Part shown: in pieces, positions 4,634 to 44,634 of the stretch
Position numbering within the stretch: position 1 is the stretch's first letter
How the letters are laid out: the number at the start of each line of letters is the position of its first letter
From: Escherichia coli
GTDB taxonomy: Bacteria > Pseudomonadota > Gammaproteobacteria > Enterobacterales > Enterobacteriaceae
Strand: one strand, 5' to 3'
DNA: 64,000 bases
NCBI RefSeq assembly: GCF_044324785.1
Contig: NZ_CP172127.1
The notes under the pieces: generated by a model
Told to the model about the DNA's origin: nothing
The model's database searches: none
The model's input: only the letters and a program-made list of their open reading frames with translations
Position numbers and translations under genes: made by a program

Positions 4634-5044
4634 ATGACCACCACTCCAGGCAAATTAGAGTACCCGTCGGACAAAGGACACATAGACGACGGTAAAAACT
4701 ATCTCGACGTCATTTTGTGGAATATGAACGTCGGGCCACGTGCGCGCACTCGCGCGGTTTTTGTGCCAAGACCTAAAGCAGGCAATTTTTCAACCCCTGC
4801 TAAGCCTGCCCGTCAGGCATCCGTAGCCGCAGCGCCAGCAGTGAAACGTAAGGGCAAAACGCACACCGGGATCGCGATTCGCAGAAATGGTGAGCGGCAA
4901 GTAAAACTCCACGAAACAGCGACAACCTGGTGTGCTTCACCGCATGAAACTTACGACAAGATAACCGGGCAGCGCATTGGTGCGCCTGGTCGCTGTCGCC
5001 TGCTGTTGAGTTCCATCACTCCGATAGCAAAGAAAGGGGCGTGA
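4634..5044 (+). CDS. Hypothetical phage protein (136 aa, basic)
   Basis: ORF preceded by the second copy of the conserved junction/RBS sequence. Confidence 0.5.
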   Translation: MTTTPGKLEYPSDKGHIDDGKNYLDVILWNMNVGPRARTRAVFVPRPKAGNFSTPAKPARQASVAAAPAVKRKGKTHTGIAIRRNGERQVKLHETATTWCASPHETYDKITGQRIGAPGRCRLLLSSITPIAKKGA

Positions 5045-5045
5045 T

Positions 5046-5282
5046 ATGGCCGGGCAATCAGATTACCTGCCGCCCGGCTTACCACACAACCGCGCCAAAT
5101 GGCCCCAGGAATACCAGCTTAAAGAGCACTACGACATGCGAGCGGCGACGCTGATCCGCCAACTCTTTGAGAAACGTATTCCGAGGGGAAGCGTGATTGA
5201 GCAAATCGGAATGACGCCGGATACGTACCGGGAATTTTTCAGAGAGCGTCTGAACTACTGGAGAGGGGTGATGGAGCAATGA
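5046..5282 (+). CDS. Hypothetical phage protein (78 aa)
   Basis: ORF packed 1 nt after the previous stop; its stop overlaps the next start. Confidence 0.5.
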   Translation: MAGQSDYLPPGLPHNRAKWPQEYQLKEHYDMRAATLIRQLFEKRIPRGSVIEQIGMTPDTYREFFRERLNYWRGVMEQ

Positions 5283-5590
5283 AATACAAACGGTGGGTGC
5301 GTGCGGAAGTCGTAATCATCAAACAATGTGCGGGCAGCATGACAGTTGAACGTATAGGGCAGCTTATTGGAAGAACCGGTGCAGCGGTACGCACAAAAGC
5401 GCGCGAGCTGAAAATCTGTATGTATCTGCGGGGTAATTATCACCAGTCAGCAAAATACTGCCAGGAGGATATCGAGCTGGCAAGGGAATTACATCAGTCG
5501 GGTATTAATCGCCAGGATATCGCAGAAAAACTCGAAATGCCGATCGGAGCGGTGAATCAGTTTGTTTATTTTGAGCGGAGGATTTCATGA
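5279..5590 (+). CDS. Putative DNA-binding protein with two HTH-like repeats (103 aa)
   Basis: Two helix-turn-helix-like segments (TVERIGQLIGRTGAAVRTKAREL and NRQDIAEKLEMPIGAVNQFVY). Translationally coupled on both sides. Confidence 0.5.
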   Translation: MKYKRWVRAEVVIIKQCAGSMTVERIGQLIGRTGAAVRTKARELKICMYLRGNYHQSAKYCQEDIELARELHQSGINRQDIAEKLEMPIGAVNQFVYFERRIS

Positions 5591-5811
5591 AAGAACTTTT
5601 TCTGGCATTTGTGCCCCGGTTTATTAATGACCAGATCGCACTGACTGATAATGGTGAACAATATGAAATTGCCTGCAGCATGGTGGATGTGAATCCGGGC
5701 GAACGGTATGACGCGATGTGTGACCTGAAAATATTCACCTGGCTGGGTTGGGCCATTCCGTGTGGAGAACCAACAAATATTCGCCCGTTTGAGGGCAGGG
5801 AGGCTGTATGA
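5587..5811 (+). CDS. Hypothetical phage protein (74 aa)
   Basis: ORF with ATGA overlaps at both ends. Confidence 0.45.
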   Translation: MKELFLAFVPRFINDQIALTDNGEQYEIACSMVDVNPGERYDAMCDLKIFTWLGWAIPCGEPTNIRPFEGREAV

Positions 5812-5924
5812 GTGAATTGAAAATACGTCGCAAGGCAATAGCACGCGTTAAAAATCCATTACCAGTGCCCGCCGAATGCCATTTTTGTGGTGGGAATGTA
5901 CGGATTGGTACGTATGTATGGTGA
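5808..5924 (+). pseudogene. 38-codon ORF with a single CxxC (possible truncated zinc-ribbon gene)
   Basis: ATGA-coupled start. MSELKIRRKAIARVKNPLPVPAECHFCGGNVRIGTYVW then a stop; only half of a Cys4 ribbon is present. Confidence 0.3.
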
Positions 5925-5998
5925 TTGCGGAGTGACGTAAAACGAATCGTTGTGGGTGTAATATCGTCAATATCATTGGTTTCCCGGAGGGAAAGGAC

Positions 5999-6220
5999 AT
6001 GTTTGGCGATAAACTGGAGTTACCACGGAACGGGCGGATAGTGCTCTATATTTCAGATTACAAAGTAACCAGGGCTGAGGTGTTGGAACCGGAAAAACAT
6101 CTGGTCACGTTACCGGACATTATTGAGTTGTATAAGCGGGTCGGATATGTGGACTTGCATCGCGATGATGTTCCCGTTGAGTGTATGGAATGTGAACACC
6201 GGAGGTTTGAAGTTGATTGA
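5999..6220 (+). CDS. Hypothetical phage protein (73 aa)
   Basis: ORF with GGAGGGAAAGG upstream of the ATG. Confidence 0.5.
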   Translation: MFGDKLELPRNGRIVLYISDYKVTRAEVLEPEKHLVTLPDIIELYKRVGYVDLHRDDVPVECMECEHRRFEVD

Positions 6221-7447: not shown

Positions 7448-8371
7448 TTATTGGTTTCTGAGGAAAGCGATTCTTGAAAGGGTCATTTGCGTCTGGCAGT
7501 CGACCATTTTCTTGACTTCAGCATCTGTTCCCTGCATTGAAACTTTACCGCACATAGCATCCTTAGTTTTGATCCACTGACGCTGAGAAGGCAGCAAATC
7601 TTTTTTCTTCGCCGGGGTTAACTTGCTCCAGACGGTACTCAAATCAGAGTCGGCATTCGCAAATGCCATTCGGGACTGATCAAGGCTGTCAGCTTTTTGT
7701 GGCTGAAGTTGTGCCTGTCTCTCTATTTGCTTCTCCGCCTCATACTTAGCCTGTTCCTGCGCCCTGAGTTGCACCTGTTGTTCCGCTTCAATTTGGCTCT
7801 GTTGGGCATCCTTAGCCTGCTGGATTTTCTGCTGCTCAACGATCGGGTTGATAATAGAAAGTGATGTCAGTAAAGCGGCGCCCACTGATATCGGATTATC
7901 AGAAGAGGTTTTTACAAAAACGTTTTTCTGATCGTCGGTCGCCTGCACGGTGTAGGTGATACGTTTGGAAAAGGCGTTTGCGTTGTTCTCCAAAAACAGG
8001 CTTTCCATTTGCTTGTCGAGATTACGATTAAAATTCTTTCTGTAATCATCAGAAAGCTGGACGTATTCGTTCGCAGGTAGAGTCATCGTCACGGTCCCTT
8101 CACAAGTTTTCATTGTGCTGCCCGTGTCACTTGATGTTGTGGAGATTTCAGAGATGGCTAGTTTGATCTTGTCCAATGTGCTTCGTTTGGTCTGATTAGT
8201 GACATCAGGGTATTTATCGACCTGTTCAGAGAGTCCTTCATAAGCAGATTTTTTTAATAAATCCATAAGCGCTGACTGGGTTATTTCCGAAGAACAACCG
8301 ATCACATCTTTTTTGTTATCACAGCCTGTAAGGGCAATGGCGAGTAAGAGTACTGAGTATTTTAATCTCAT
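7448..8371 (-). CDS. Lipoprotein with Q-rich coiled-coil and C-terminal DUF1311/LprI-like domain
   Basis: Signal peptide plus lipobox LLLAIALTGC. Central EQQKIQQAKDAQQSQIEAEQQVQLRAQEQAKYEAEKQIERQAQ. C-terminal QRQWIKTKDAMCG...VDCQTQMTLSRIAFL resembles DUF1311. Opposite strand to the phage early genes. Confidence 0.75.
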   Translation of the reverse strand: MRLKYSVLLLAIALTGCDNKKDVIGCSSEITQSALMDLLKKSAYEGLSEQVDKYPDVTNQTKRSTLDKIKLAISEISTTSSDTGSTMKTCEGTVTMTLPANEYVQLSDDYRKNFNRNLDKQMESLFLENNANAFSKRITYTVQATDDQKNVFVKTSSDNPISVGAALLTSLSIINPIVEQQKIQQAKDAQQSQIEAEQQVQLRAQEQAKYEAEKQIERQAQLQPQKADSLDQSRMAFANADSDLSTVWSKLTPAKKKDLLPSQRQWIKTKDAMCGKVSMQGTDAEVKKMVDCQTQMTLSRIAFLRNQ

Positions 8372-14613: not shown

Positions 14614-14903
14614 AAAAAATCGACCTGAGAAAAGCTGCACGCGGTCGCGCTTGTACTGTGCGTATCCCCGGTGTGTGCAATCACAATCCTGAAACCAGTG
14701 TACTGGCTCACTACCACCTCGCCGGAACATGCGGAACAGCAATCAAACCACACGATATGCAGGGCGCTATCGCCTGCAGTGCGTGTCACGATGCTATCGA
14801 CGGACGTACAAAAACAGATTACGAGCGTGATTCCTTATTACTGATGCACACAGAGGGCGTTTTAAGGACGTTGGCCATCTGGCGTAACGAGGGATTCATC
14901 TGA
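14610..14903 (+). CDS. YbcO-like protein (DUF1364, putative nuclease)
   Basis: DLRKAARGRACTVRIPGVCNHNPETSVLAH...ACSACHDAIDGR closely parallels DLP12 YbcO. Confidence 0.8.
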   Translation: MKKIDLRKAARGRACTVRIPGVCNHNPETSVLAHYHLAGTCGTAIKPHDMQGAIACSACHDAIDGRTKTDYERDSLLLMHTEGVLRTLAIWRNEGFI

Positions 14904-15574
14904 TGAGTAACGAGTATTTGTTGGAATATACCCGCATAAAACTGCGCGCTGCATTGCGGGATTTGTCTGGTGGTTCTAAGGGGCAGCTGGAAGCATTGTG
15001 TGAGCACCCGCCGGCAGACAAAAACGCATATCCACGCAAACATATTCATCGTGTGCAACTGGAGGACCGGACCGTTGATGCTCTGGTTACGCCAGTTTAC
15101 GCCCTGGAAAGTTTCAGCAGACGTCGTCCCGCGCCGCCGATGAATGATTTTGAATTCGCTGATTCATCGTGGCGCCGCGCCGTGAATTCGCTCGACGTTA
15201 GCCAGCAGGCGTGGTTGCGCTATTGCTACGGTGGTCACCTGGCGTTCAAACACCAAACAGCTATTTGTGAGGCTGTCTGGAGTCGCTATAAAGGACACAT
15301 CCCCGCGTCAACTCAGAGAAAAGTAGCTAAGCGCCTGCTTTCGTTGGTGTGGTTGTCCGTGCAGGCGGTTGCAGCAGCAAATAAACGCGAGGATTTTAAG
15401 GAGATGGCTGGATCTGCGCTAGCTGGAATGTTGTCTGTTTCTCGTTCCACCTGGTGCGAAACATACTCCCCGCACTGGGTAGGAATGAAAGAGGCGGTGA
15501 GAGCACTTGATGAAATGGCACTTCTTGCAACTTTGCATCATTATCAAAACCATTTAGACGACGTTTGCGTATAA
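14903..15574 (+). CDS. Late-gene antiterminator Q (phage 21/933W type)
   Basis: Motifs DLSGGSKGQLEA, SSWRRAVNSL..QAWLRYCYG, LVWLSVQAV and W.ETYSPHW. Followed by a promoter/terminator leader and then lysis genes. Confidence 0.85.
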   Translation: MSNEYLLEYTRIKLRAALRDLSGGSKGQLEALCEHPPADKNAYPRKHIHRVQLEDRTVDALVTPVYALESFSRRRPAPPMNDFEFADSSWRRAVNSLDVSQQAWLRYCYGGHLAFKHQTAICEAVWSRYKGHIPASTQRKVAKRLLSLVWLSVQAVAAANKREDFKEMAGSALAGMLSVSRSTWCETYSPHWVGMKEAVRALDEMALLATLHHYQNHLDDVCV

Positions 15575-15844: not shown

Positions 15845-15935
15845 TAGACTGGCCCCCTGAATCTCCAGACAACCAATATCACTTAAATAAGTGATAGTCT
15901 TAATACTAGTTTTTAGACTAGTCATTGGAGAGCAG

Positions 15936-16301
15936 ATGATTGATGTCTTAGGACCGGAGAAACGCAGACGGCGTACTACACAGGAAAAGATCGCTATTGT
16001 TCAGCAGAGTTTTGAACCGGGAATGACGGTCTCCCTTGTTGCCCGGCAACACGGTGTGGCAGCCAGCCAGTTATTTCTCTGGCGCAAGCAATACCAGGAG
16101 GGAAGTCTTACTGCTGTGGCCGCAGGAGAGCAGGTCGTTCCTGCCTCTGAACTTGCTGCTGCCATGAAGCAGATTAAAGAACTCCAGCGCCTGCTCGGCA
16201 AAAAAACGATGGAAAATGAACTCCTTAAAGAAGCCGTTGAATACGGGCGTGCAAAAAAGTGGATAGCGCACGCGCCCTTATTGCCCGGGGATGGGGAGTA
16301 A
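15936..16301 (+). CDS. insC: IS2 transposase OrfA (InsC)
   Basis: [56 protein letters not shown]..., recognised as IS2 InsC. Confidence 0.95.
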
Positions 16302-17164
16302 GCTTAGTCAGCCGTTGTCTCCGGGTGTCGCGTGCGCAGTTGCACGTAATTCTCAGACGAACCGATGACTGGAAAGATGGTCGCCGCAGCCGTCACTCAG
16401 ATGATACGGATGTGCTTCTCCGTATACACCATGTTATCGGAGAGCTGCCCACGTATGGTTATCGTCGGGTATGGGCGCTGCTTCGCAGACAGGCCGAACT
16501 TGATGGTATGCCTGCGATCAATGCCAAACGTGTTTACCGGATCATGCGCCAGAATGCGCTGTTGCTTGAGCGAAAAACCGCTGTACCGCCATCGAAACGG
16601 GCACATACTGGCAAAGTGGCCGTGAAAGAAAGCAATCAACGATGGTGCTCTGACGGGTTCGAGTTCCGCTGTGATAACGGAGAAAAACTGCGAGTCACGT
16701 TCGCGCTGGACTGCTGTGACCGTGAGGCACTGCACTGGGCAGTCACTACGGGCGGCTTCGACAGTGAAACAGTACAGGACGTAATGCTGGGAGCGGTGGA
16801 ACGCCGCTTCGGCAACGAGCTTCCGGCGTCTCCAGTAGAGTGGCTGACGGATAATGGTTCATGCTACCGGGCTAATGAAACACGGCAGTTTGCCCGGATG
16901 TTGGGGCTTGAACCGAAGAACACGGCGGTGCGGAGTCCGGAGAGTAACGGCATAGCAGAGAGCTTCGTGAAAACGATAAAGCGTGACTACATCAGTATCA
17001 TGCCTAAACCAGACGGGTTAACGGCAGCAAAGAACCTTGCAGAGGCGTTCGAGCATTATAACGAATGGCATCCGCATAGTGCACTGGGTTATCGCTCGCC
17101 ACGGGAATATCTGCGGCAGCAGGCCAGTAATGGGTTAAGTGATAACAGGTGTCTGGAAATATAG
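16259..17164 (+). CDS. insD: IS2 transposase OrfB (InsD; made as an InsCD fusion by -1 frameshift)
   Basis: 301-aa [33 protein letters not shown]... with a DDE region. Overlaps insC in the -1 frame at AAAAAAG. Confidence 0.95.
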
Positions 17165-17180
17165 GGGCAAATCCACAGGT

Positions 17181-17406: not shown

Positions 17407-17678
17407 TGACCCTGCACTCTGTCCTCATTAATGCCAATGCAATTATCTGTCTGATGCTGGCACTGCGGTTGATGTTTTTTCAAAAAACAGGCCGCTATCG
17501 TTTTTTCATCTCACTAACTGCTTACCTGGCGATTCTGTCTGCTGCGTGGATAGCCCTACGAATTTTTTATGGGAAATATACGCAGGTTGATCCCGCAGAG
17601 TTCTTTCTCAACCTCACCATCTGTATTGCTGTCTGGCGGGCACGAGGGAATATTTCAAAAATAACAGGAGACAGGTAA
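17406..17678 (+). CDS. Three-TM small membrane protein (holin/antiholin-like)
   Basis: 90 aa with three hydrophobic segments. ATGA-type coupling between the holin-like gene and the endolysin gene. Confidence 0.6.
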   Translation: MTLHSVLINANAIICLMLALRLMFFQKTGRYRFFISLTAYLAILSAAWIALRIFYGKYTQVDPAEFFLNLTICIAVWRARGNISKITGDR

Positions 17679-18160
17679 TGACGGATCCTAAATGGCTAAT
17701 TGAGGCTCGAAAAAACCTCGGCATTCGGGAAATGAAAGGGAAGCAACATGCTGCAGAAATTGTGCAGTACTGGAAAGATATCAAACGCGGCGGCATTAAG
17801 GATGACGAAACACCGTGGTGCTCCGCCTTCACAGGAGCAATGCTGGAACGTGCAGGTATTCGCTCAACGCGTTTTGAGTCTGCGAATTCTTATCTCGATT
17901 GGGGTAATGAACTGAAGGAACCCGCCTATGGATGCATTGCTATTCTGTCTCGGTCTGGCGGTGGTCACGTCGGCTTTGTTGTCGGGAAAAATGCCGCCGG
18001 GGATTTAATGATTTTGGGGGGCAACCAGGCAGATGAAGTAAATATCAAAGCTTTTCCGAGCTCACGAGTTACCGGCTATCGCTGGCCTGTTGATGTGCTG
18101 GATGTGCCGTCAACCTTGCCGCTGCTGATGGGAGGTGAATTATCAACTTCGGAGCAGTAA
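17678..18160 (+). CDS. Endolysin, NlpC/P60-CHAP-like cysteine peptidase (TIGR02594-type)
   Basis: PKWLIEARKNLGIREMKG...DDETPWCSAF...GGHVGFVVG...ILGGNQADEVN...GYRWP follows the TIGR02594 phage peptidase pattern. Lysis-cassette position. Confidence 0.8.
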   Translation: MTDPKWLIEARKNLGIREMKGKQHAAEIVQYWKDIKRGGIKDDETPWCSAFTGAMLERAGIRSTRFESANSYLDWGNELKEPAYGCIAILSRSGGGHVGFVVGKNAAGDLMILGGNQADEVNIKAFPSSRVTGYRWPVDVLDVPSTLPLLMGGELSTSEQ

Positions 18161-32540: not shown

Positions 32541-33167
32541 ATGACAAGTCAAAGCGTACTGCCTCCGAACGCAATAACCCCCGAGAGAGCGCTGGAATCT
32601 GTTTTATCTCACGTTGGCGATCTGCCTGGCGATATTCGAATTATTAAAAATCCCGATTTGTGTCCTGCAAATCTGTTGCCGTGGCTGGCGTGGGAATACG
32701 CCGTCACCTACTGGAACCCCGACTGGAGCGAGCAGCAAAAACGCGAAATTATTAAAGCAGCTGCGTGGCAGAACAAGCACCGCGGAACGCGTGGAGCTGT
32801 TGAACGAGCGTTATTAACAGTTGGATTTGAGAGCAAAATGAGAGAGTGGTTTGAAGCCACGCCGAGGGACGACCCGTATACATTCGCAATTAAAATATAT
32901 CTGCTAAAAAGTATAGGGTTAGATTTAGAGCTATTGAATACATTTATAGCGCAAATATTTGATGCAAAAAATTGTCGTTCATTATTAAAGGAAATAAATT
33001 TCGAAACGGGTGTCGATGGTGAGTTTTTTATAGCCGGTACACCTTACGCGAAAATAGACGTAAACGTCCCAGCAGACGGCGACGGCGGTGTAAAAATTAA
33101 CGGCGGGCTATATATATCGGGCTCACCAATTGTTAGTTTAAATGTGGAGATAGGGCCAAATGGCTGA
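32541..33167 (+). CDS. Tail protein I
   Basis: LLPPNAT-type N-terminus (VLPPNAITPERALE), LLPWLAWEY...W...W.E..KR fits P2 gpI. Confidence 0.8.
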   Translation: MTSQSVLPPNAITPERALESVLSHVGDLPGDIRIIKNPDLCPANLLPWLAWEYAVTYWNPDWSEQQKREIIKAAAWQNKHRGTRGAVERALLTVGFESKMREWFEATPRDDPYTFAIKIYLLKSIGLDLELLNTFIAQIFDAKNCRSLLKEINFETGVDGEFFIAGTPYAKIDVNVPADGDGGVKINGGLYISGSPIVSLNVEIGPNG

Positions 33168-34284
33168 AAATAAAATTTACGCAGTACTGACAGACCGTGG
33201 CGCACAACTCGAGGCCGCTGCCCTGGCGTCAGGCGTTCCAGTGGTGCTGAACAAATTTGTTATCGGTGACGCGAACGGAAACGACGATGTAACACCAGAC
33301 CCTGCACGAACAGCATTAATTCACGAGACGTATCGCGGTGATATTAAATCGTCAGAAAATAGCGGTAATCAGGTTATTTTTACGCTATACGTACCACCGG
33401 AAACCGGCGGCTATACTATCCGCGAAGTGGGAATACTGACAGATAAAGGTGAACTGTACTCTGTAGCGCGTTCGCCGGATATTTTAAAACCCACGGACAG
33501 TAACGGCGCGCTGATTTCAATCACGTATAAATACACTCTCGCGGTGTCCAGCACCTCTACAGTTAATGTTGTAGTATATGACAACTACGTAACTCCCGAA
33601 GCAGCTGACAAAAAATATTTGCAGATAAGTAAAAACTTATCTGAAATTTCCGCAAATGGTGAAACTGCTCAGCAGGCTGCGCGGAAAAATATTGGTATAG
33701 ATGGGGATGTTGCATATAGAGATAAGAGTAATACATTTACAACTCAAAACACTTTCAAAGACGATGTTTTTTTTGAAGATATTTTGATTTCTAAAAAACA
33801 AATAAATATAAATAAACCAGATACCAACTTGACATTATTTTCGCTTGCGGGCTGGTCAGATGTGAGCGGTGATTATTTAGAAGTGTCGACGCGGGGGGGA
33901 AATAATCAAAACGTTTTTTATAGATTACGCGGAATTCACTATGACGGCCTGGTGTTACTGTGCGGCGGGCAGACGTATAAATATTGGAATGAGGGAAATC
34001 TTAAACCGGTTAAAACGATTAACGGGAAGTCCCCAGACGCTAACGGGAACGTCGCAATAACAGTAAGTAGCTCAGGGATACAGAACGTCCAGCTTGGCGC
34101 AGAGGTTGCTCACACACCGGCGAGTAATGAGGTTACGTGGGACTTTAAATGTCCGACCGGCTGTGTTCTTACTGGGATATATGTTCAGGAAACCGGCGAC
34201 AGCTCAGCTGATAATATCGGCGGTGTTTATTATAAACCGATCCAAAAATACATTAATAATGTATGGACTACGATTTCCGGATGA
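33160..34284 (+). CDS. Tail fibre protein (P2 gpH-like N-terminus)
   Basis: YAVLTDRGAQLEAAALASG..V.LNKFVIGDANG...IREVGILTDKGELYSV is the conserved gpH/tail-collar N-terminal domain. The C-terminal half is AT-rich and divergent. Confidence 0.8.
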   Translation: MAENKIYAVLTDRGAQLEAAALASGVPVVLNKFVIGDANGNDDVTPDPARTALIHETYRGDIKSSENSGNQVIFTLYVPPETGGYTIREVGILTDKGELYSVARSPDILKPTDSNGALISITYKYTLAVSSTSTVNVVVYDNYVTPEAADKKYLQISKNLSEISANGETAQQAARKNIGIDGDVAYRDKSNTFTTQNTFKDDVFFEDILISKKQININKPDTNLTLFSLAGWSDVSGDYLEVSTRGGNNQNVFYRLRGIHYDGLVLLCGGQTYKYWNEGNLKPVKTINGKSPDANGNVAITVSSSGIQNVQLGAEVAHTPASNEVTWDFKCPTGCVLTGIYVQETGDSSADNIGGVYYKPIQKYINNVWTTISG

Positions 34285-34287
34285 GTT

Positions 34288-34866
34288 ATGCAAAATTTAA
34301 AATCATTTAAGCTTGTAAAACCTAAAACGAAATTACTTAAACTTAGCGAGTCTGACGGACAAAATGTTTTGTATCTTCAGTCCGAAGACGGCCTGGATTG
34401 GTATGAATGCCAGTCACTGTATCGCGATGACACAGTAAAAATAATGTACGACAAAGAAAACATTATTCGATCAGTTGTTGATCGCCCGGTCCCGGAGCGA
34501 GGAAATACCTATTCTGTGAGCATGTTTTTCCCGATTGATATGAGTGTTACGGAGGTTGAGTTGAGCACATATCCTTCTGAGCTAACTCTCGACGGATCGT
34601 GGAAATTTGTTGACGGTGATGTATATCAAGATGAGCTCATTGTAAATGAGCGTATTTACAAAGAAAACTCCAAAAAAATTAATGAATTAGTCCGAGAGGC
34701 TCAGTCAGCAATTCTAAATTTACAAACGGCCATAGAGATTGATATTTCATCAGATGGTGATGAGGAAAAATTAATAGAATGGCGACGGTACCTGTGCGCG
34801 CTGAATAAAATAACAGCCACGGATCTGAGTCAGTCCCCACTTAACACGCCTTTACGACCAGCATAA
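34288..34866 (+). CDS. Tail fibre assembly chaperone (gpG/Tfa-like)
   Basis: 192-aa ORF directly after the fibre gene. C-terminal ...KLIEWRRYLCALNKI motif typical of Tfa proteins. Confidence 0.7.
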   Translation: MQNLKSFKLVKPKTKLLKLSESDGQNVLYLQSEDGLDWYECQSLYRDDTVKIMYDKENIIRSVVDRPVPERGNTYSVSMFFPIDMSVTEVELSTYPSELTLDGSWKFVDGDVYQDELIVNERIYKENSKKINELVREAQSAILNLQTAIEIDISSDGDEEKLIEWRRYLCALNKITATDLSQSPLNTPLRPA

Positions 34867-36401: not shown

Positions 36402-36914
36402 ATGTCAGACAGCAACGCTTACCGCGCGTTTGCGCTATTCGTGCAGGGCGAACGGGTTTTAAATTGTACTGAATATACTCCTGTCGATATGAAAATAATC
36501 GAGGACGAGTTTAAAACAGGCGCGATGGATACAGCTATCACATTAGATGGCGGTATGGAGAAAATGTCAGCCAGTTTTAAAGTTTCGGGTTCTGATTCTG
36601 GTGTTATGAGCTATTTCGGGTTAATACCGGGAGTCAAGACGCGGTTTGAAATTCGTAGTGCGTACACAGACTCCTATGGAATAAATTTTGAGCGTATTGA
36701 TACCTACGAGGGACTTATTACGGCAATCACTGATGACGCTCAGGGGACTGATTCAAAATCGTCAGTGGGGCAATCAGTAACGATTGCGCCGAGCTATTAT
36801 AAACGAGTTCAAAATGGACGAATTATTTACGAAATTCATCCTGCAAAAATGAAACGCGTTATCAACGGTGTTGATGTTCTTGCGGGCGTCGCTCGAATCC
36901 TTCATGTATATTAA
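36402..36914 (+). CDS. Tail tube protein (P2 FII-like)
   Basis: 170-aa ORF after the sheath gene. Size and order are as in P2. Confidence 0.8.
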   Translation: MSDSNAYRAFALFVQGERVLNCTEYTPVDMKIIEDEFKTGAMDTAITLDGGMEKMSASFKVSGSDSGVMSYFGLIPGVKTRFEIRSAYTDSYGINFERIDTYEGLITAITDDAQGTDSKSSVGQSVTIAPSYYKRVQNGRIIYEIHPAKMKRVINGVDVLAGVARILHVY

Positions 36915-39382: not shown

Positions 39383-39544
39383 TACAAAATCAAGCGCTAC
39401 CAGAGCACTTAACAAGTATAAAAATAATAAAAAAAACTACGAGCATAAATGTAAAACAACCTGATGGTATTTTTTTTTGACGCCGAAATACTAATACCTC
39501 TCCGACTACTAAAATTAATTCTCATTATGAAATCCTTTTAATTA

Positions 39545-39772: not shown

Positions 39773-40816
39773 ATGAGTGATTACGTAAATACTGGCGTGG
39801 AAGCATGGAAGCCCAATTTTTATATATCTGCTGATAATGAAAACATCACGGATAAAATAAGAAAAGGTTTGATCAATATCACGCTCACAGATTATGGTGG
39901 TTCGAGTAAACAGACAGACGAATTACGCGTAGCAATCGTTTCTGAAACTCTGAAAATTCCGGCCCGCGGAGTAAAAATCAGTATTGGGCTCGGTTTCGGT
40001 AATCAGATAATTGATAAGGGTGTATACATCGTTGATGGTGCGAGCAGTGGCGGTGAACCCCGGGTAGTTGATTTCACAGCAAAAGCAGCTCCGATGAACG
40101 CATCAAAAGGCTCTCCGACAGTTCAGAGCAAAAAAACTCGCTCCTGGAGCGACGTCACTGTCAGCAATATCGTTGCAACAATAGCGAGCGATAACGGGCT
40201 AAAACCTCGCGTATCAAAGCGGTTTGCAGACAACATTATCACGCAGCTCGATCAAGTCGGCGAGTCAGATATGCACCTGATGTCGCGGCTCGCAACGAGA
40301 TTCGATGCGGTGAGTAAACCCGCGGGCGGGTACTGGATATTCCTGCCGCGCGGCGCGGGCGAATCTGTTAGCGGAGCACCGCTTCAGCACTACACGCTCA
40401 CGCGTCGTGATAACTCAAGCTGGGGTTATTCGAGAAATGGACAAAACGGTGATAGTGGCGGAGGTGGCGAAAATGCGGAGCCAACGTATTTGATCAAATA
40501 TCACGATACAGCAACGGGGCAGATCAAAGAATTGCGTACGGGCAGTGGCGGCGATCCTGTAATCGAGTGGCCGGCAGTGGAGCCGTCGCTTGATGCAGCG
40601 AAAGAAGCTGCGCCAGGACTCAAGGGCGGTGCAGCTAAAAAAGAGTTCTCCATGACTTACACGACGCCCGCGACGCTCGATTTAGTATCGCTGACTGCAG
40701 AATGCAAAGTCACAACACAAGGATTCGGGACAGAGGAGGACCGAGACTGGACAATCAATACGTTGACGCTGACGCTGGCTGAAAACGGATTCTCTGCGCG
40801 ACTGTCGCTGGAGTAA
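39773..40816 (+). CDS. Tail/late control protein D
   Basis: 347 aa. PNFYISADNENIT..I...L.NITLTD..G...D.L and its position after X/U fit P2 gpD. Confidence 0.8.
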   Translation: MSDYVNTGVEAWKPNFYISADNENITDKIRKGLINITLTDYGGSSKQTDELRVAIVSETLKIPARGVKISIGLGFGNQIIDKGVYIVDGASSGGEPRVVDFTAKAAPMNASKGSPTVQSKKTRSWSDVTVSNIVATIASDNGLKPRVSKRFADNIITQLDQVGESDMHLMSRLATRFDAVSKPAGGYWIFLPRGAGESVSGAPLQHYTLTRRDNSSWGYSRNGQNGDSGGGGENAEPTYLIKYHDTATGQIKELRTGSGGDPVIEWPAVEPSLDAAKEAAPGLKGGAAKKEFSMTYTTPATLDLVSLTAECKVTTQGFGTEEDRDWTINTLTLTLAENGFSARLSLE

Positions 40817-40821
40817 ATGAA

Positions 40822-42648
40822 ATGGCAATAATATCGGGTGTATACGCAAATGGGGTCGGCGAGCCCGTTGTCGGCGTTCAGTTAGTATTAACAGCACGGG
40901 TCACGAGTTCACGCGTAGTAATGACCACTGTTGTAGAGCAAGAAACAGGCGCGGCGGGTGAGTACAAATTTGATATGAAGCCCGGAGTTTACGTTGTCAC
41001 TGCTAGTGCGGCATATCTCGGCGTGATTAACGTTAACCCGGACAGTGTTGACGGCACGTTAAACGACTATTTGACTAATTTTAGCGCAGACGAACTGACG
41101 CCAGCTGCGTTGGCGGAGATCCAGGAACTCGTTGCCACAGCACAAGCCGCTGCCAGTGTTGCCAGCGCCGCCGCAACGGAGGCCAGGCAGAATGCCGCCG
41201 CCGCCGCTGCTGCTGCGCAGATTTCGACGGCAGCGGCAGGGAGCGCCAGATTTGAGAATTTTGACGAAATTATCAATGTCAATACAACAGCAATGCTGGA
41301 GCTGGAAAAACCGGAGGTGTTAGATCCGGATATTGCAATAACTATCACAGAGACGATTAATTATAACTATATTGGCCCGGTAAACGGATTTTGCGACGTT
41401 ACTAGCCCGCTTGAATATAAAATTCAAATGTACGCCTACACAACAGGCGAATATTTTAACGGCGAAACAAATTTAACAGCGGACGGGAAGTTTTCTTTTA
41501 AACGTTCCTGGGCTGGTGCAAAACAATTCAGATTGGTGCGCGTAGCAGATAGTAAATGGATCACTACGCTGGAATACCCGCTGTGTATTCGCAGTTACTG
41601 GATGCCCGCTGACGCCGATCCCGAGGTAGTCAGCGTCATGAAAGACCGTTGCTACACATATGATCAGGCGTGCGCGGCGCTGGCTCTCATGGCGCAGAAT
41701 CACGAGGCGGTAGAGCGTTATGTTACGGGTCTGTGCGCCCTGGTGGGTGAAAACGGCGGCATTAAATTTTTTGTTAACCGGCTGTCCGCACAGTCCTCCC
41801 GCGAATATTACCGCACGGGTAACGCGGCGTGGGTGTTGTACGCCCTGGCATTCTATCTGAGCAAATACCCTACCGGCAGTAACGCTGAGTTAGCGCGCGC
41901 GAAATTAAACGCCGGGCTAACCTGGCTGGACGGTCTGAAGGTTGACGCCAGCGGCGACCCGCGCCACGGCTTATACATGGGCGGCAACGGTAAATATCTG
42001 GAGGACGGATCATTTGATCCGAATTATGTTGCGACCTGGTGCGCGCTCGAGCACAACGTTGATATTTATTTTTTATTCGAACTCGTTGGACGGTTAACCG
42101 ATTTTACCGGATACGAACTGCGAGCCACCACGCTGGCTGCAAATATCGTGGAAAAATTCTGGATTGAGAGCGAGGGGCGATTCCGGCAGGGCGTGCACAT
42201 TGACGGCCCGGACAACGCCGCAGCGCTGGATCAATCGAGTTGGGGCGGGATATTCGCAGTAAAAGCCGCGCCGGAGTTGGCGGAAAAATGCCGCCGTTAT
42301 ATGGAAAGATTCCGGTTCGGCACACTGGAGAGCACCGGTTATACACCGTATCACCCGGACTACGGATACAGCGGCCATAGCCGTGGCGTGTGGACCGAGG
42401 GTACAGCGGGTGTAGCACTATTCGAACGTGCGCTAGGGAACGAGCAGAGAGCTACCGATCTGATCGCGGGATTAAAACCACTGCGTAATGAATACGGCTA
42501 TCGCGACTCATGCGACGATAAAAAATACGACACACTGCCGGACTGGCCGTCGACTACAAACACCGCTTGGGTTATTTTAACATGCAAGCCGGCGGGGTTT
42601 TGGTGCGTAGATTTCCCGGTATTGGACGTTGGTATCGTCAGGTACTGA
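40822..42648 (+). CDS. Second fibre/tailspike-like protein: Stf-type N-terminal domain, Ala-rich coiled linker, C-terminal (alpha/alpha)6-glycosidase-like domain
   Basis: MAIISGVYANGVGEPVVGVQLVLTARVTSSRVV...GEYKFDMKPGVYVV...GTLNDYL parallels the lambda Stf N-terminal domain. The C-terminal 350 aa has repeated aromatic helix motifs (GNAAWVLYALAFY, WCALEHNVDIYFLF, SSWGGIF, WTEGTAGVALF). Confidence 0.65.
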   Translation: MAIISGVYANGVGEPVVGVQLVLTARVTSSRVVMTTVVEQETGAAGEYKFDMKPGVYVVTASAAYLGVINVNPDSVDGTLNDYLTNFSADELTPAALAEIQELVATAQAAASVASAAATEARQNAAAAAAAAQISTAAAGSARFENFDEIINVNTTAMLELEKPEVLDPDIAITITETINYNYIGPVNGFCDVTSPLEYKIQMYAYTTGEYFNGETNLTADGKFSFKRSWAGAKQFRLVRVADSKWITTLEYPLCIRSYWMPADADPEVVSVMKDRCYTYDQACAALALMAQNHEAVERYVTGLCALVGENGGIKFFVNRLSAQSSREYYRTGNAAWVLYALAFYLSKYPTGSNAELARAKLNAGLTWLDGLKVDASGDPRHGLYMGGNGKYLEDGSFDPNYVATWCALEHNVDIYFLFELVGRLTDFTGYELRATTLAANIVEKFWIESEGRFRQGVHIDGPDNAAALDQSSWGGIFAVKAAPELAEKCRRYMERFRFGTLESTGYTPYHPDYGYSGHSRGVWTEGTAGVALFERALGNEQRATDLIAGLKPLRNEYGYRDSCDDKKYDTLPDWPSTTNTAWVILTCKPAGFWCVDFPVLDVGIVRY

Positions 42649-42676
42649 CAATTATAATTTTTGGAGTTTTTTATAC

Positions 42677-43096
42677 ATGGTCGTTAAAAATATTCTTGCC
42701 TTTGGGATTATGTGTGCGCTTGCTGGTTGTGCAACCAAGCCAGTCTCAAACGAGCAGGCTACTCCCGTTCCAGAAAAACAGGTAATCAATAGCGCAATAC
42801 TCGAAAAAAGAGATGGGACAGGAGAGGTGATCATCAAGCGTGATTCGGGTTTCTTTGGGAGCGCGTGCTTTTCCCGTGTTTATGTTGATGGTAAAGAGGT
42901 GGCAGATTTAGGTACAGCTCAGAAAGTCGTTGTATACCCAACGATTGGTGATCATGTCTTCAGCGCGTGGCCAAAAGGAGTATGTGGTGGTGGCATGAGT
43001 GAGCAGGCGGGCAAGGTGACAACAGATCGTACTTTGATGTATCGCATAGGTTACGGTTCAAACGGTGAATATGGCATTCACCCAACTGCGTTTTAA
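42677..43096 (+). CDS. Lipoprotein (139 aa), DUF2846-like
   Basis: MVVKNILAFGIMCALAGC lipobox. GEVIIKRDSGFFGSACFSRVYVDGKEVADLGTAQKVVVYPTIGDHVF resembles the DUF2846 pattern. Last gene before attR. Confidence 0.65.
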   Translation: MVVKNILAFGIMCALAGCATKPVSNEQATPVPEKQVINSAILEKRDGTGEVIIKRDSGFFGSACFSRVYVDGKEVADLGTAQKVVVYPTIGDHVFSAWPKGVCGGGMSEQAGKVTTDRTLMYRIGYGSNGEYGIHPTAF

Positions 43097-43253
43097 CTGT
43101 GTTGGGTATGCGATTTTATTCGCATACCCCTTAGGGCAATTGACGATACTTCCAAATGACCATTATTTTACGTGTGGCCTCGATGTTGCGCACATGAGAG
43201 TTCTATATTCTTTCAAACAGGATTATCCCATTGATTTAATTATACTTTCGTAT

Positions 43254-43314
43254 GGTCTCGAAAACCGGAGTAGGGGCAACTCTACCGGGGGTTCAAATCC
43301 CCCTCTCTCCGCCA
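43254..43314 (+). other. attR: displaced 3-prime 61 nt of a tRNA-Ser(CGA) (serU-type) gene
   Basis: GGTCTCGAAAACCGGAGTAGGGGCAACTCTACCGGGGGTTCAAATCCCCCTCTCTCCGCCA is anticodon loop, long variable arm, T-arm and acceptor end with CCA. The 5-prime half of the tRNA is absent (preceded by unrelated ...ctttcgtat). Confidence 0.85.
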
Positions 43315-43861
43315 CTTTATCAATGACTTATCTCCCGACTTCCCGCCTTGCTTTTCCTAAACAGAACAATCGTAGAATATTCTTGAAGGGTTAGATCGTC
43401 ACTGTTTTCTGTTCGATACTGTGACATTCAGCACTTGATTCGCTATGGATCTGACAGGAAGGTTTCGAGCGAAAATCTGCAGTTATTCAGTCGTTTTCTT
43501 ATCGCTCACCATTATTCTTTTAGACATTCATCCTATGAAACTGCCGCAAAGTTGGTGGTGGGAACTGAAGTTGCGTAGAGAAGGGGGCAATAATTGAGCC
43601 AAAAAAGGAACGCGGCCGTCAGATTAAAGCCGCGGGACAAAGTCCATAATTTCCAAGAGTTGTTGAATTTCCCAGCTTTTTTGAAAGCCTTTGTATCATA
43701 CTAACAAGTAAAAAAGGTTTAAATACCAAAATTAACCTATATTTCTGGTTAGCTTTACCATGACAGATGACTTGCTTCTGGAGACATTGGCGCTGCCAGT
43801 CTGTATTGGTGAGTTGTGTATTTATTGTTCGCCGCTTTCTCGGTTTTTTTCTACAGACATA

Positions 43862-43894
43862 ATAAAAAAGACACGTCTCAAGCATGAGCGTGTC
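43862..43894 (-). terminator. zinT intrinsic terminator
   Basis: Minus strand agacacg...cgtgtct hairpin (43868-43894) followed by ttttttat. Confidence 0.7.
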
Positions 43895-43983
43895 TGAGTT
43901 TGTTTTATTTATTTGTCTTGGTAAATTATTGTCGTTACTACCAGGCACTGTTCTGTTAAATAATTGAAGTCAGCGCAAAAAAA

Positions 43984-44634
43984 TCAATGAGACATCATCT
44001 CCTCGACCACTTCTTCGCTACTCAACTGATAGGGATAATACGTTGGCCAGTTTTCCATTTCATTTAATAAAGATTGCTGTGAATCATTACCCATAAAAAT
44101 GTGAAAATGAGATGATTTTCGTGGTGCAATTATATGATCGCTAAATTGAATATATTTAGGGGCTTTGCTTTCAGGATCTTTACATTCGAATAAGTAACGA
44201 ACGCCTTTCTTGCCTGATTTATAGGTGAGTATTTTGTATCCATCATAATCATATTTACAGGATGTTGTTTCATTATTTCTATGGAATTCAACAATGCCGT
44301 CCTCAATGCCAATCATCTCGATATCTGTCACATAACCTTTGCGATAATAATCTTTAATTTCAGCAAATGTTTTAGTTTTATCTGCATCCGCTTTCTTCTG
44401 AAAGACGGGGTCAAGTTTGCCACTTTGCAGTAAAGGATAAACGGATTGCCAGACTCCATCCCAGTCACTGAGCGTTCGGTTTTGTACATTGGCATCATCA
44501 AAAACACCATTAGCAGCTTTTTGTTCGACCTCTGTTAAGGGTTTGCCGTGTGAGTGATGACCATGCGAAAAGGCAGGAGCGCTAACAATAAAGACACCTA
44601 AAGCAACAGCCAGTTTATGAAGACGAATCGCCAA
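43984..44634 (-). CDS. zinT: Periplasmic metal-binding protein ZinT (YodA)
   Basis: 216 aa, [43 protein letters not shown]..., recognised as ZinT. Confidence 0.95.

Follow-up and report, generated by a model that had tools for sequence, protein, structure and literature searches.

The closest described relatives of the gene reported here are the Stf fibers of lambda-type phages and the enzyme-bearing receptor-binding proteins (RBPs) of other phages. Lambda Stf anchors bearing enzymatic heads (K1F, K5, and KL106) have been engineered and are functional (PMC11338833). The noncontractile tail of Ur-lambda has twelve collar domains, which clamp it where the tube protein gpV joins gpM (PMC12617516). 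About 1% of predicted phage depolymerases belong to the α/α toroid class (PMC11326577, PMC12491483), and this fold was left out of the DepoScope training set (PMC11326577). Here, we analyzed the gene for a 608-aa protein in a 64,000-nucleotide stretch of Escherichia coli DNA (assembly GCF_044324785.1, contig NZ_CP172127.1), which we call the window and whose positions we use throughout. The gene closes the tail gene cluster of a serU-integrated temperate E. coli phage with a lambdoid early region, a lambda-like head, and a contractile tail of the P2 type. We conclude that it probably encodes an accessory, modular RBP of this contractile-tail phage. An extra enzyme-headed fiber of this sort is a plausible and fairly common addition for host recognition and does not amount to a new type of system.

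The 608-aa open reading frame (ORF) starts 5 nt after the stop codon of the gpD-like gene, as an earlier note made from the sequence had placed it (Table 1). From this short gap and the GGAG 8 nt upstream of its ATG, the ORF reads as the final gene of the late tail operon. The protein consists of a Stf-type collar, an Ala-rich linker, a β-sandwich, and an (α/α)6 barrel, in that order. It has no signal peptide and begins with the collar itself. A monomer AlphaFold2 model built on 29 homologues has a mean confidence score (pLDDT) of 86.9, with values above 90 over residues 145 to 600.

The Stf-type N terminus of the earlier note was borne out. PF08400 (phage_tail_N) matched residues 3 to 126 (E = 5e-25; 88.5 bits against a 26.6-bit cutoff), and residues 4 to 85 align to the solved Ur-lambda Stf collar, 9e7m (E = 6.5e-9). 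The collar is modeled as an N-terminal β domain, and the closest collar among 50,697 phage records is at most 41% identical. The Ala-rich coiled linker was also found where expected, as one long helix of low confidence, and is likely a trimeric coiled-coil stalk. In alignments of related proteins, module exchanges are located at the linker or just past it, and the C termini diverge beyond it.

The same note had read the C-terminal region as an (α/α)6 barrel of about 350 aa. The barrel held, but the part after the linker is about 465 aa long and includes a β-sandwich that the note did not list. This sandwich travels with the barrel in all homologues. The AlphaFold2 barrel has the twelve helices of an (α/α)6 fold, all at pLDDT values above 90, and its fold neighbors in Foldseek are (α/α)6 carbohydrate enzymes, to which its sequence identity is just 7 to 15%. 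The C-terminal region is thus predicted with high confidence to be a barrel of the glycoside hydrolase (GH) type.

We looked for conserved residues in the barrel. At E ≤ 1e-3, an exhaustive HMMER search gave 558 cluster representatives, of which 63, with 25 to 46% identity, were aligned. Six residues are invariant in this alignment (Y280, G333, E410, L469, D470, and E526), and eight are nearly so (D281, R331, H411, D414, D464, W474, W524, and W583). The conserved polar residues fall in the first turn of helices 279 to 291, 332 to 348, 409 to 422, 474 to 482, 525 to 537, and 578 to 588, and in the predicted secondary structure these helices alternate along the barrel. In (α/α)6 glycosidases, such inner-helix ends form the catalytic funnel. 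Because the invariant residues sit at the N termini of alternate helices, we propose a putative active site with the carboxylates E410, D470, and E526.

Sequence searches of the barrel were empty. Pfam gave no match to the window domain at E ≤ 10 and only stray weak matches in 4 of the 63 distant homologues (E ≥ 0.0016). NCBIfam and PADLOC gave none. The 63-sequence family profile and phmmer matched nothing among all PDB sequences, and hhalign found no match to E. coli YihS. Therefore, sequence does not place the barrel in any GH family. Clusters of its distant homologues are named "hypothetical protein" and, in one case, "lanthionine synthetase-like."

Table 1. Features of the window that bear on the 608-aa protein and its prophage
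Feature	Position	Strand	Evidence or remark
Q antiterminator gene	14903-15574		
IS2-type element	15854-17167		Separates Q from the lysis genes; orfA 15891-16301, orfB 16259-17164
Endolysin (lysis genes)	17678-18160		
gpH-like primary tail fiber, 374 aa	33160-34284	+	PF12571, E = 3e-30
Tfa chaperone, 192 aa	34288-34866	+	PF02413, E = 5e-17
gpD-like protein, last gene of the P2-type tail module	39773-40816	+	phrog_52, E = 1e-92; weak PF05954 match
Shine-Dalgarno GGAG of the 608-aa ORF	40810-40813	+	8 nt 5' of the ATG, directly before the gpD stop codon; read from the sequence
Accessory RBP (probable), 608 aa	40822-42648	+	ORF; PF08400; PHROG 13714/7032/4128 "tail fiber protein"; AlphaFold2 model
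N-terminal Stf collar domain, residues ~1-92, presumed tail anchor	40822-41097	+	PF08400; 9e7m_Ta match
Ala-rich helical linker, residues ~94-142	41101-41247	+	Helix 94-138 in the model, pLDDT <50 as a monomer
β-Sandwich domain, residues ~145-255	41254-41586	+	Strands 173-251 at pLDDT >90
(α/α)6 barrel, residues ~265-600, putative glycan-binding or -cleaving head	41614-42621	+	Candidate catalytic residues E410, D470, E526
Outer-membrane-type lipoprotein, 139 aa, independent cargo gene (moron)	42677-43096	+	phrog_890, E = 4e-52; lipobox LAGC
Stable hairpin, terminator-like without a U-tract, directly 3' of the lipoprotein stop	43104-43129	+	Centroid -18.1 kcal/mol; z-score -3.66 against shuffles
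attR core, 61-nt 3' fragment of tRNA-Ser(CGA) serU	43254-43314	+	Identical (100%) to serU-region sequence of phage records

We then compared what follows gpD in prophages of the same lineage, which share the gpU-X-D genes, and found four arrangements. A 608/609-aa collar-barrel protein occurs at serU, as in the window, and at the icd/e14 site; the window protein itself recurs unchanged in at least 345 blocks of the genome collection. Next to yecA, a 307-aa collar protein with a different head precedes the lipoprotein gene. At serU in E. coli C41, a 336-aa collar protein has yet another head. In the fourth arrangement, the fiber is absent, and the lipoprotein gene directly follows gpD. Among the fiber-bearing variants, the first ~110 residues are about 90 to 98% identical, and they lead into three unrelated C termini. 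The collar of this lineage is thus conserved across three different integration sites.

The barrel module, in turn, is fused to five or more different anchors, with N termini that contain PF08400, PF12571, PF18668, PF25613, or PF03406. In phage phiSTEC1575-Stx2k, it has a lambda-type collar in the stf position (J-lom-stf), and the protein is 59% identical overall. A lambdoid serU prophage of E. coli JNE151685 carries it after J, with a different collar and extra domains. The DNA of that prophage is 95% identical to window positions 41344 to 43761, an identity that begins at about residue 175 of the 608-aa protein. At the Rac site, a contractile-tail prophage with baseplate J has the barrel on another PF08400 subtype after a fiber and Tfa. 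An HP1/P2-like prophage has it on a PF12571 (gpH-type) anchor as a second fiber, again after a fiber and Tfa, and Citrobacter has it after J on the tailspike anchor PF18668 (TSP1/gp66-type). The range of the barrel therefore runs from Enterobacterales prophages and this one Stx2k phage to one jumbo phage (ph0011) and actinobacteriophages, with the barrel in minor tail proteins of Microbacterium phages. The barrel subtypes include clusters at 100%, 77%, and 60% identity. No barrel context that we examined has a Tfa-type chaperone gene after the barrel gene. In the window, likewise, no PF02413 protein is encoded directly after the 608-aa gene, and the lipoprotein gene comes next.

One collar with three heads, and one head on several anchors, point to an exchangeable host-recognition head on lineage-specific anchors. 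The 608-aa protein is additional to the gpH-like fiber and Tfa at 33160 to 34866, which PF12571 and PF02413 matches identify. The layout of a classical fiber with Tfa followed by a barrel-headed second RBP has arisen repeatedly, in independent phage lineages. This recurrence supports the dual-RBP reading, in which the phage has a fiber plus a second, enzyme-headed RBP; the earlier note had offered it as one of two possibilities.

Related prophages show stacking and decay as well. The 915-aa Stf of JNE151685 (locus L001, 4555 to 7302) consists of a collar, long Ala/Ser/Asn-rich repeats, the head domain of the C41 336-aa protein, and the β-sandwich/barrel, so heads appear to be joined in series as well as exchanged. 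C41 keeps just the last ~98 nt of the lipoprotein gene after its 336-aa collar protein, and its tape-measure gene is split in two, as is that of one carrier of an identical 608-aa protein (decay at loci L004 [E. coli C41], 4819 to 6023, and L008, 6497 to 8136). Relatives at the icd site (loci L023 to L026, 5472 to 5714, minus strand) have an additional gene between gpU and gpX that encodes an 80-aa PF14373 (Imm_superinfect) protein; no ORF corresponding to it is present in the window at 39383 to 39544.

We suggest the following mode of action. The Stf-type collar would anchor a trimer to the tail, and the Ala-rich segment would form a short coiled-coil stalk. The distal β-sandwich and barrel would bind a host surface polysaccharide, which may be O-antigen, capsule, colanic acid, or enterobacterial common antigen, and would probably cleave it. 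Such binding could give a fast, reversible first adsorption and clear the path for the gpH fiber and the baseplate. More speculatively, the barrel may be a new GH family that serves as a widely shuffled depolymerase head, joined to a divergent Stf collar adapted to a P2-type contractile tail. We consider this more specific version possible but short of probable.

Several observations weigh against an accessory RBP on this tail. The P2-type tail does not present the surface of the gpV/gpM junction in the same way as lambda's. Because the lambda collar clamps an exposed tube/tip junction, docking on a P2-type tail would be an attachment geometry not yet described; the distance of the collar from those in phage records would fit an adaptation to another platform without proving it. 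Among the phage records and the closest gpD relatives, no isolated phage combined a contractile tail with a PF08400 fiber. The isolated phages closest by gpD, Hafnia yong2 and Citrobacter Chris1, have a different gene order and no such fiber, and the records named "vB_EcoM-...R" include host flanks and lack the fiber. The fiber gene follows gpD in only 23 of the 453 complete E. coli genomes that have this gpD, and the gene is thus dispensable, as Stf is in lambda. The IS2 element between Q and the lysis genes may impair late transcription or inducibility, so the present prophage copy is perhaps not fully inducible. As for the enzyme, (α/α)6 barrels are found also in epimerases, cyclases, and binding domains, and our literature search found no biochemical or virion data for any member of the barrel family. 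Because the barrel has no sequence link to any characterized glycosidase family (Pfam, NCBIfam, and PDB profile), we infer catalysis from fold and conservation only.

These points bear on three other explanations. The gene could be a passenger of recombination, in which a stf-like gene, the lipoprotein gene, and the attR arm were picked up from lambdoid serU prophages. It would then be expressed late without being able to assemble on a contractile tail, and its product would be functionless or a free enzyme released at lysis. The 95% identity of the window to the right end of a lambdoid serU prophage fits this scenario, as do the absence of the fiber from about 95% of genomes with the tail module, the binding of the lambda collar to the siphovirus-specific gpV/gpM, and the lack of an isolated myovirus with such a fiber. 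However, the exchange with the lambdoid prophage begins only well past the collar, which is lineage specific and about 30 to 40% identical to lambdoid collars. The collar also occurs at three integration sites, coupled to gpD and with three heads, which is the pattern expected of a working anchor, and a PF08400-barrel protein also stands last in a second contractile-tail lineage, the one at the Rac site. We therefore regard a mere passenger as unlikely, and it keeps that much weight because of the caveats on virion incorporation (the collar surface, the missing isolate, the 23 of 453 genomes, and IS2). Somewhat less likely again is a noncatalytic lectin head that binds a glycan or protein receptor without cleaving it. 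The barrel belongs to no GH family by sequence, and (α/α)6 barrels do serve as binding or structural modules; Foldseek matches of the window barrel include complement TED-like proteins and the SSV19 tail protein VP4. Against a lectin, three carboxylates and a Tyr, an Arg, a His, and a Trp are strictly conserved at the predicted barrel mouth in very distant homologues, including nonphage proteins, and such conservation is typical of active enzymes.

The earlier note's other possibility was a lysogenic-conversion pair, in which the enzyme and the lipoprotein jointly modify or guard the receptor polysaccharide in the lysogen. The two genes are indeed adjacent at the prophage end, both in the window and in JNE151685. 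A sigma-70-like site at 42629 to 42658 (TTGGTA-18-TATAAT, matching at 10 of 12 positions) lies across the 3' end of the 608-aa ORF, just ahead of the lipoprotein start. However, its predicted transcript start would land on the lipoprotein's GGAG, and consensus scans for promoters and terminators found such sites to be no more numerous than in shuffled sequence. The 608-aa protein lacks a signal peptide and starts with a virion-anchor domain. The two genes also turn up apart from each other in most contexts: in about 95% of related E. coli prophages, the lipoprotein gene has no fiber with it, and in most E. coli relatives it directly follows gpD; the barrel protein, for its part, lacks the lipoprotein at the icd and Rac sites and in phiSTEC1575-Stx2k. 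We rejected a functional pair on these grounds and consider joint conversion very improbable. The accessory RBP of a contractile-tail phage thus remains our preferred explanation.

The lipoprotein is real, as the earlier note had it, and its DUF2846 label fared poorly. The 139-aa ORF begins at an ATG within a longer ORF that starts with TTG. Its phrog_890 match spans 135 of the 136 profile positions and places it in PHROG 890. By comparison, the window protein has no match to DUF2846 (PF11008) or any other Pfam family even at E ≤ 10, and 6 of its 38 homologues touch PF11008, at best with 29 bits, below the 34.3-bit cutoff. In the homologue alignment, the LAGC lipobox is conserved, with Ala at +2, and so are two Cys residues. 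Under the Lol rule, Ala at +2 implies outer-membrane sorting. The protein is modeled as a β-sandwich (pLDDT 89), and a fold search gave generic transthyretin/TssJ-like β-sandwich matches only. Its homologues lie inside siphophage tail clusters, between a K-like gene and the I/J genes in Klebsiella prophages and between the T gene and the tape-measure gene in Salmonella prophages. Because it is found without the fiber and in these other contexts, it is an independent cargo gene. The lipoprotein is predicted to be exported to the periplasm or outer membrane of the lysogen, where a role in the envelope, either surface modification or superinfection exclusion, is plausible. A literature search found no study of the 608-aa protein or of this lipoprotein family.

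Profile matches to window proteins show a complete P2-type contractile tail set upstream of the 608-aa gene (Phage_base_V, GPW_gp25, Baseplate_J, Tail_P2_I, sheath, tube [36402 to 36914], tape measure, GpU, tail X, and gpD). The gpD-like gene is labeled "late control protein" or "VgrG/Pvc8 family" in the annotation of relatives. The left 21 kb of the window is the lambdoid early region, and attL therefore lies beyond the left window end. A second prophage lipoprotein gene in this region (307 aa, MRLKYSVLLLAIALTGC..., 7448 to 8371, minus strand) is probably a further cargo gene. The IS2-type element has 33-nt inverted repeats at 15854 to 15886 and 17135 to 17167.

The attR that the earlier note placed after the lipoprotein gene is there, as a serU 3' fragment present in a single copy within the window. 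An intact tRNA at this site was rejected, since just the 61-nt fragment is present and a tRNA search of the window found no intact tRNA. The host genes zinT, msrQ, and msrP lie downstream. JNE151685 and C41 have yodB, the gene for a cytochrome b561 homologue, between serU and zinT; the window lacks it and has ~223 nt in place of ~1 kb at 43761 to 43984. The spacing of 888 nt from the lipoprotein gene to zinT is common to draft genomes of identical context.

If the barrel is an active depolymerase, it would add a sequence-orphan family of a rare α/α-toroid class to the known phage enzymes. Its presence in hundreds of E. coli assemblies would then aid host-range prediction for temperate phages, and such heads could be used in engineered Stf chimeras like those of delivery vehicles (PMC11338833). 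Should the collar indeed dock on a contractile tail, this would show how accessory fibers move between tail architectures. The lipoprotein gene is a very common cargo gene of enterobacterial prophages; its Klebsiella variant alone occurs in 1326 collection blocks.

The lipoprotein can be compared with the cargo lipoproteins Bor of lambda, Cor of phi80 and N15, and Llp of T5. Like them, it is a small lipobox add-on in or next to temperate-phage tail genes with variable insertion points. However, we saw no sequence or convincing structural similarity to them. The modeled fold of the 139-aa protein is the generic transthyretin/TssJ-like β-sandwich.

Compared with (α/α)6 GHs (GH15-like, GH76, and MmpH), the head of the 608-aa protein also has a β-sandwich before the barrel, as in bacterial GH15, GH78, and GH116 enzymes, and its conserved carboxylates are predicted to lie at the barrel mouth, at helix N termini. 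It differs in its low sequence identity to these enzymes and in lacking any sequence match in Pfam, NCBIfam, or the PDB, even when a 63-sequence profile was used. The barrel thus appears to share the (α/α)6 glycosidase fold and to belong to no curated GH family.

The lambda and Ur-lambda Stf (PF08400; PDB 9e7m/9mgh) has a homologous N-terminal collar followed by a linker and helical stalk, and it too is a dispensable accessory adsorption fiber whose gene comes last among those for the tail. Close barrel-bearing relatives of the 608-aa protein occupy the exact stf position after J and lom, as in phiSTEC1575-Stx2k and JNE151685. The 608-aa gene itself follows gpD of a P2-type sheath/tube module, not J/lom of a noncontractile tail, and its collar subtype is about 40% identical to lambda's. 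Furthermore, the gp37-like distal fiber and Tfa are replaced by a globular β-sandwich and (α/α)6 head with no downstream chaperone gene. By its anchor, the protein is a member of the PF08400 fiber family; by position, tip, and chaperone, it is not a canonical Stf.

Tailspike and depolymerase RBPs (those of P22 and Sf6, the CBA120 TSPs, and the K1F endosialidase) share with it a conserved anchor and an exchangeable, polysaccharide-directed C-terminal domain. They also coexist with a second RBP in one virion, a pairing known here from the genes alone, and one barrel relative has the TSP1/gp66-type anchor PF18668. In contrast to their β-helix or β-propeller heads, the head of the 608-aa protein is a predicted (α/α)6 barrel. 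As judged from its sequence and model, the 608-aa protein would act as tailspike or depolymerase RBPs do, with a lambda Stf anchor.

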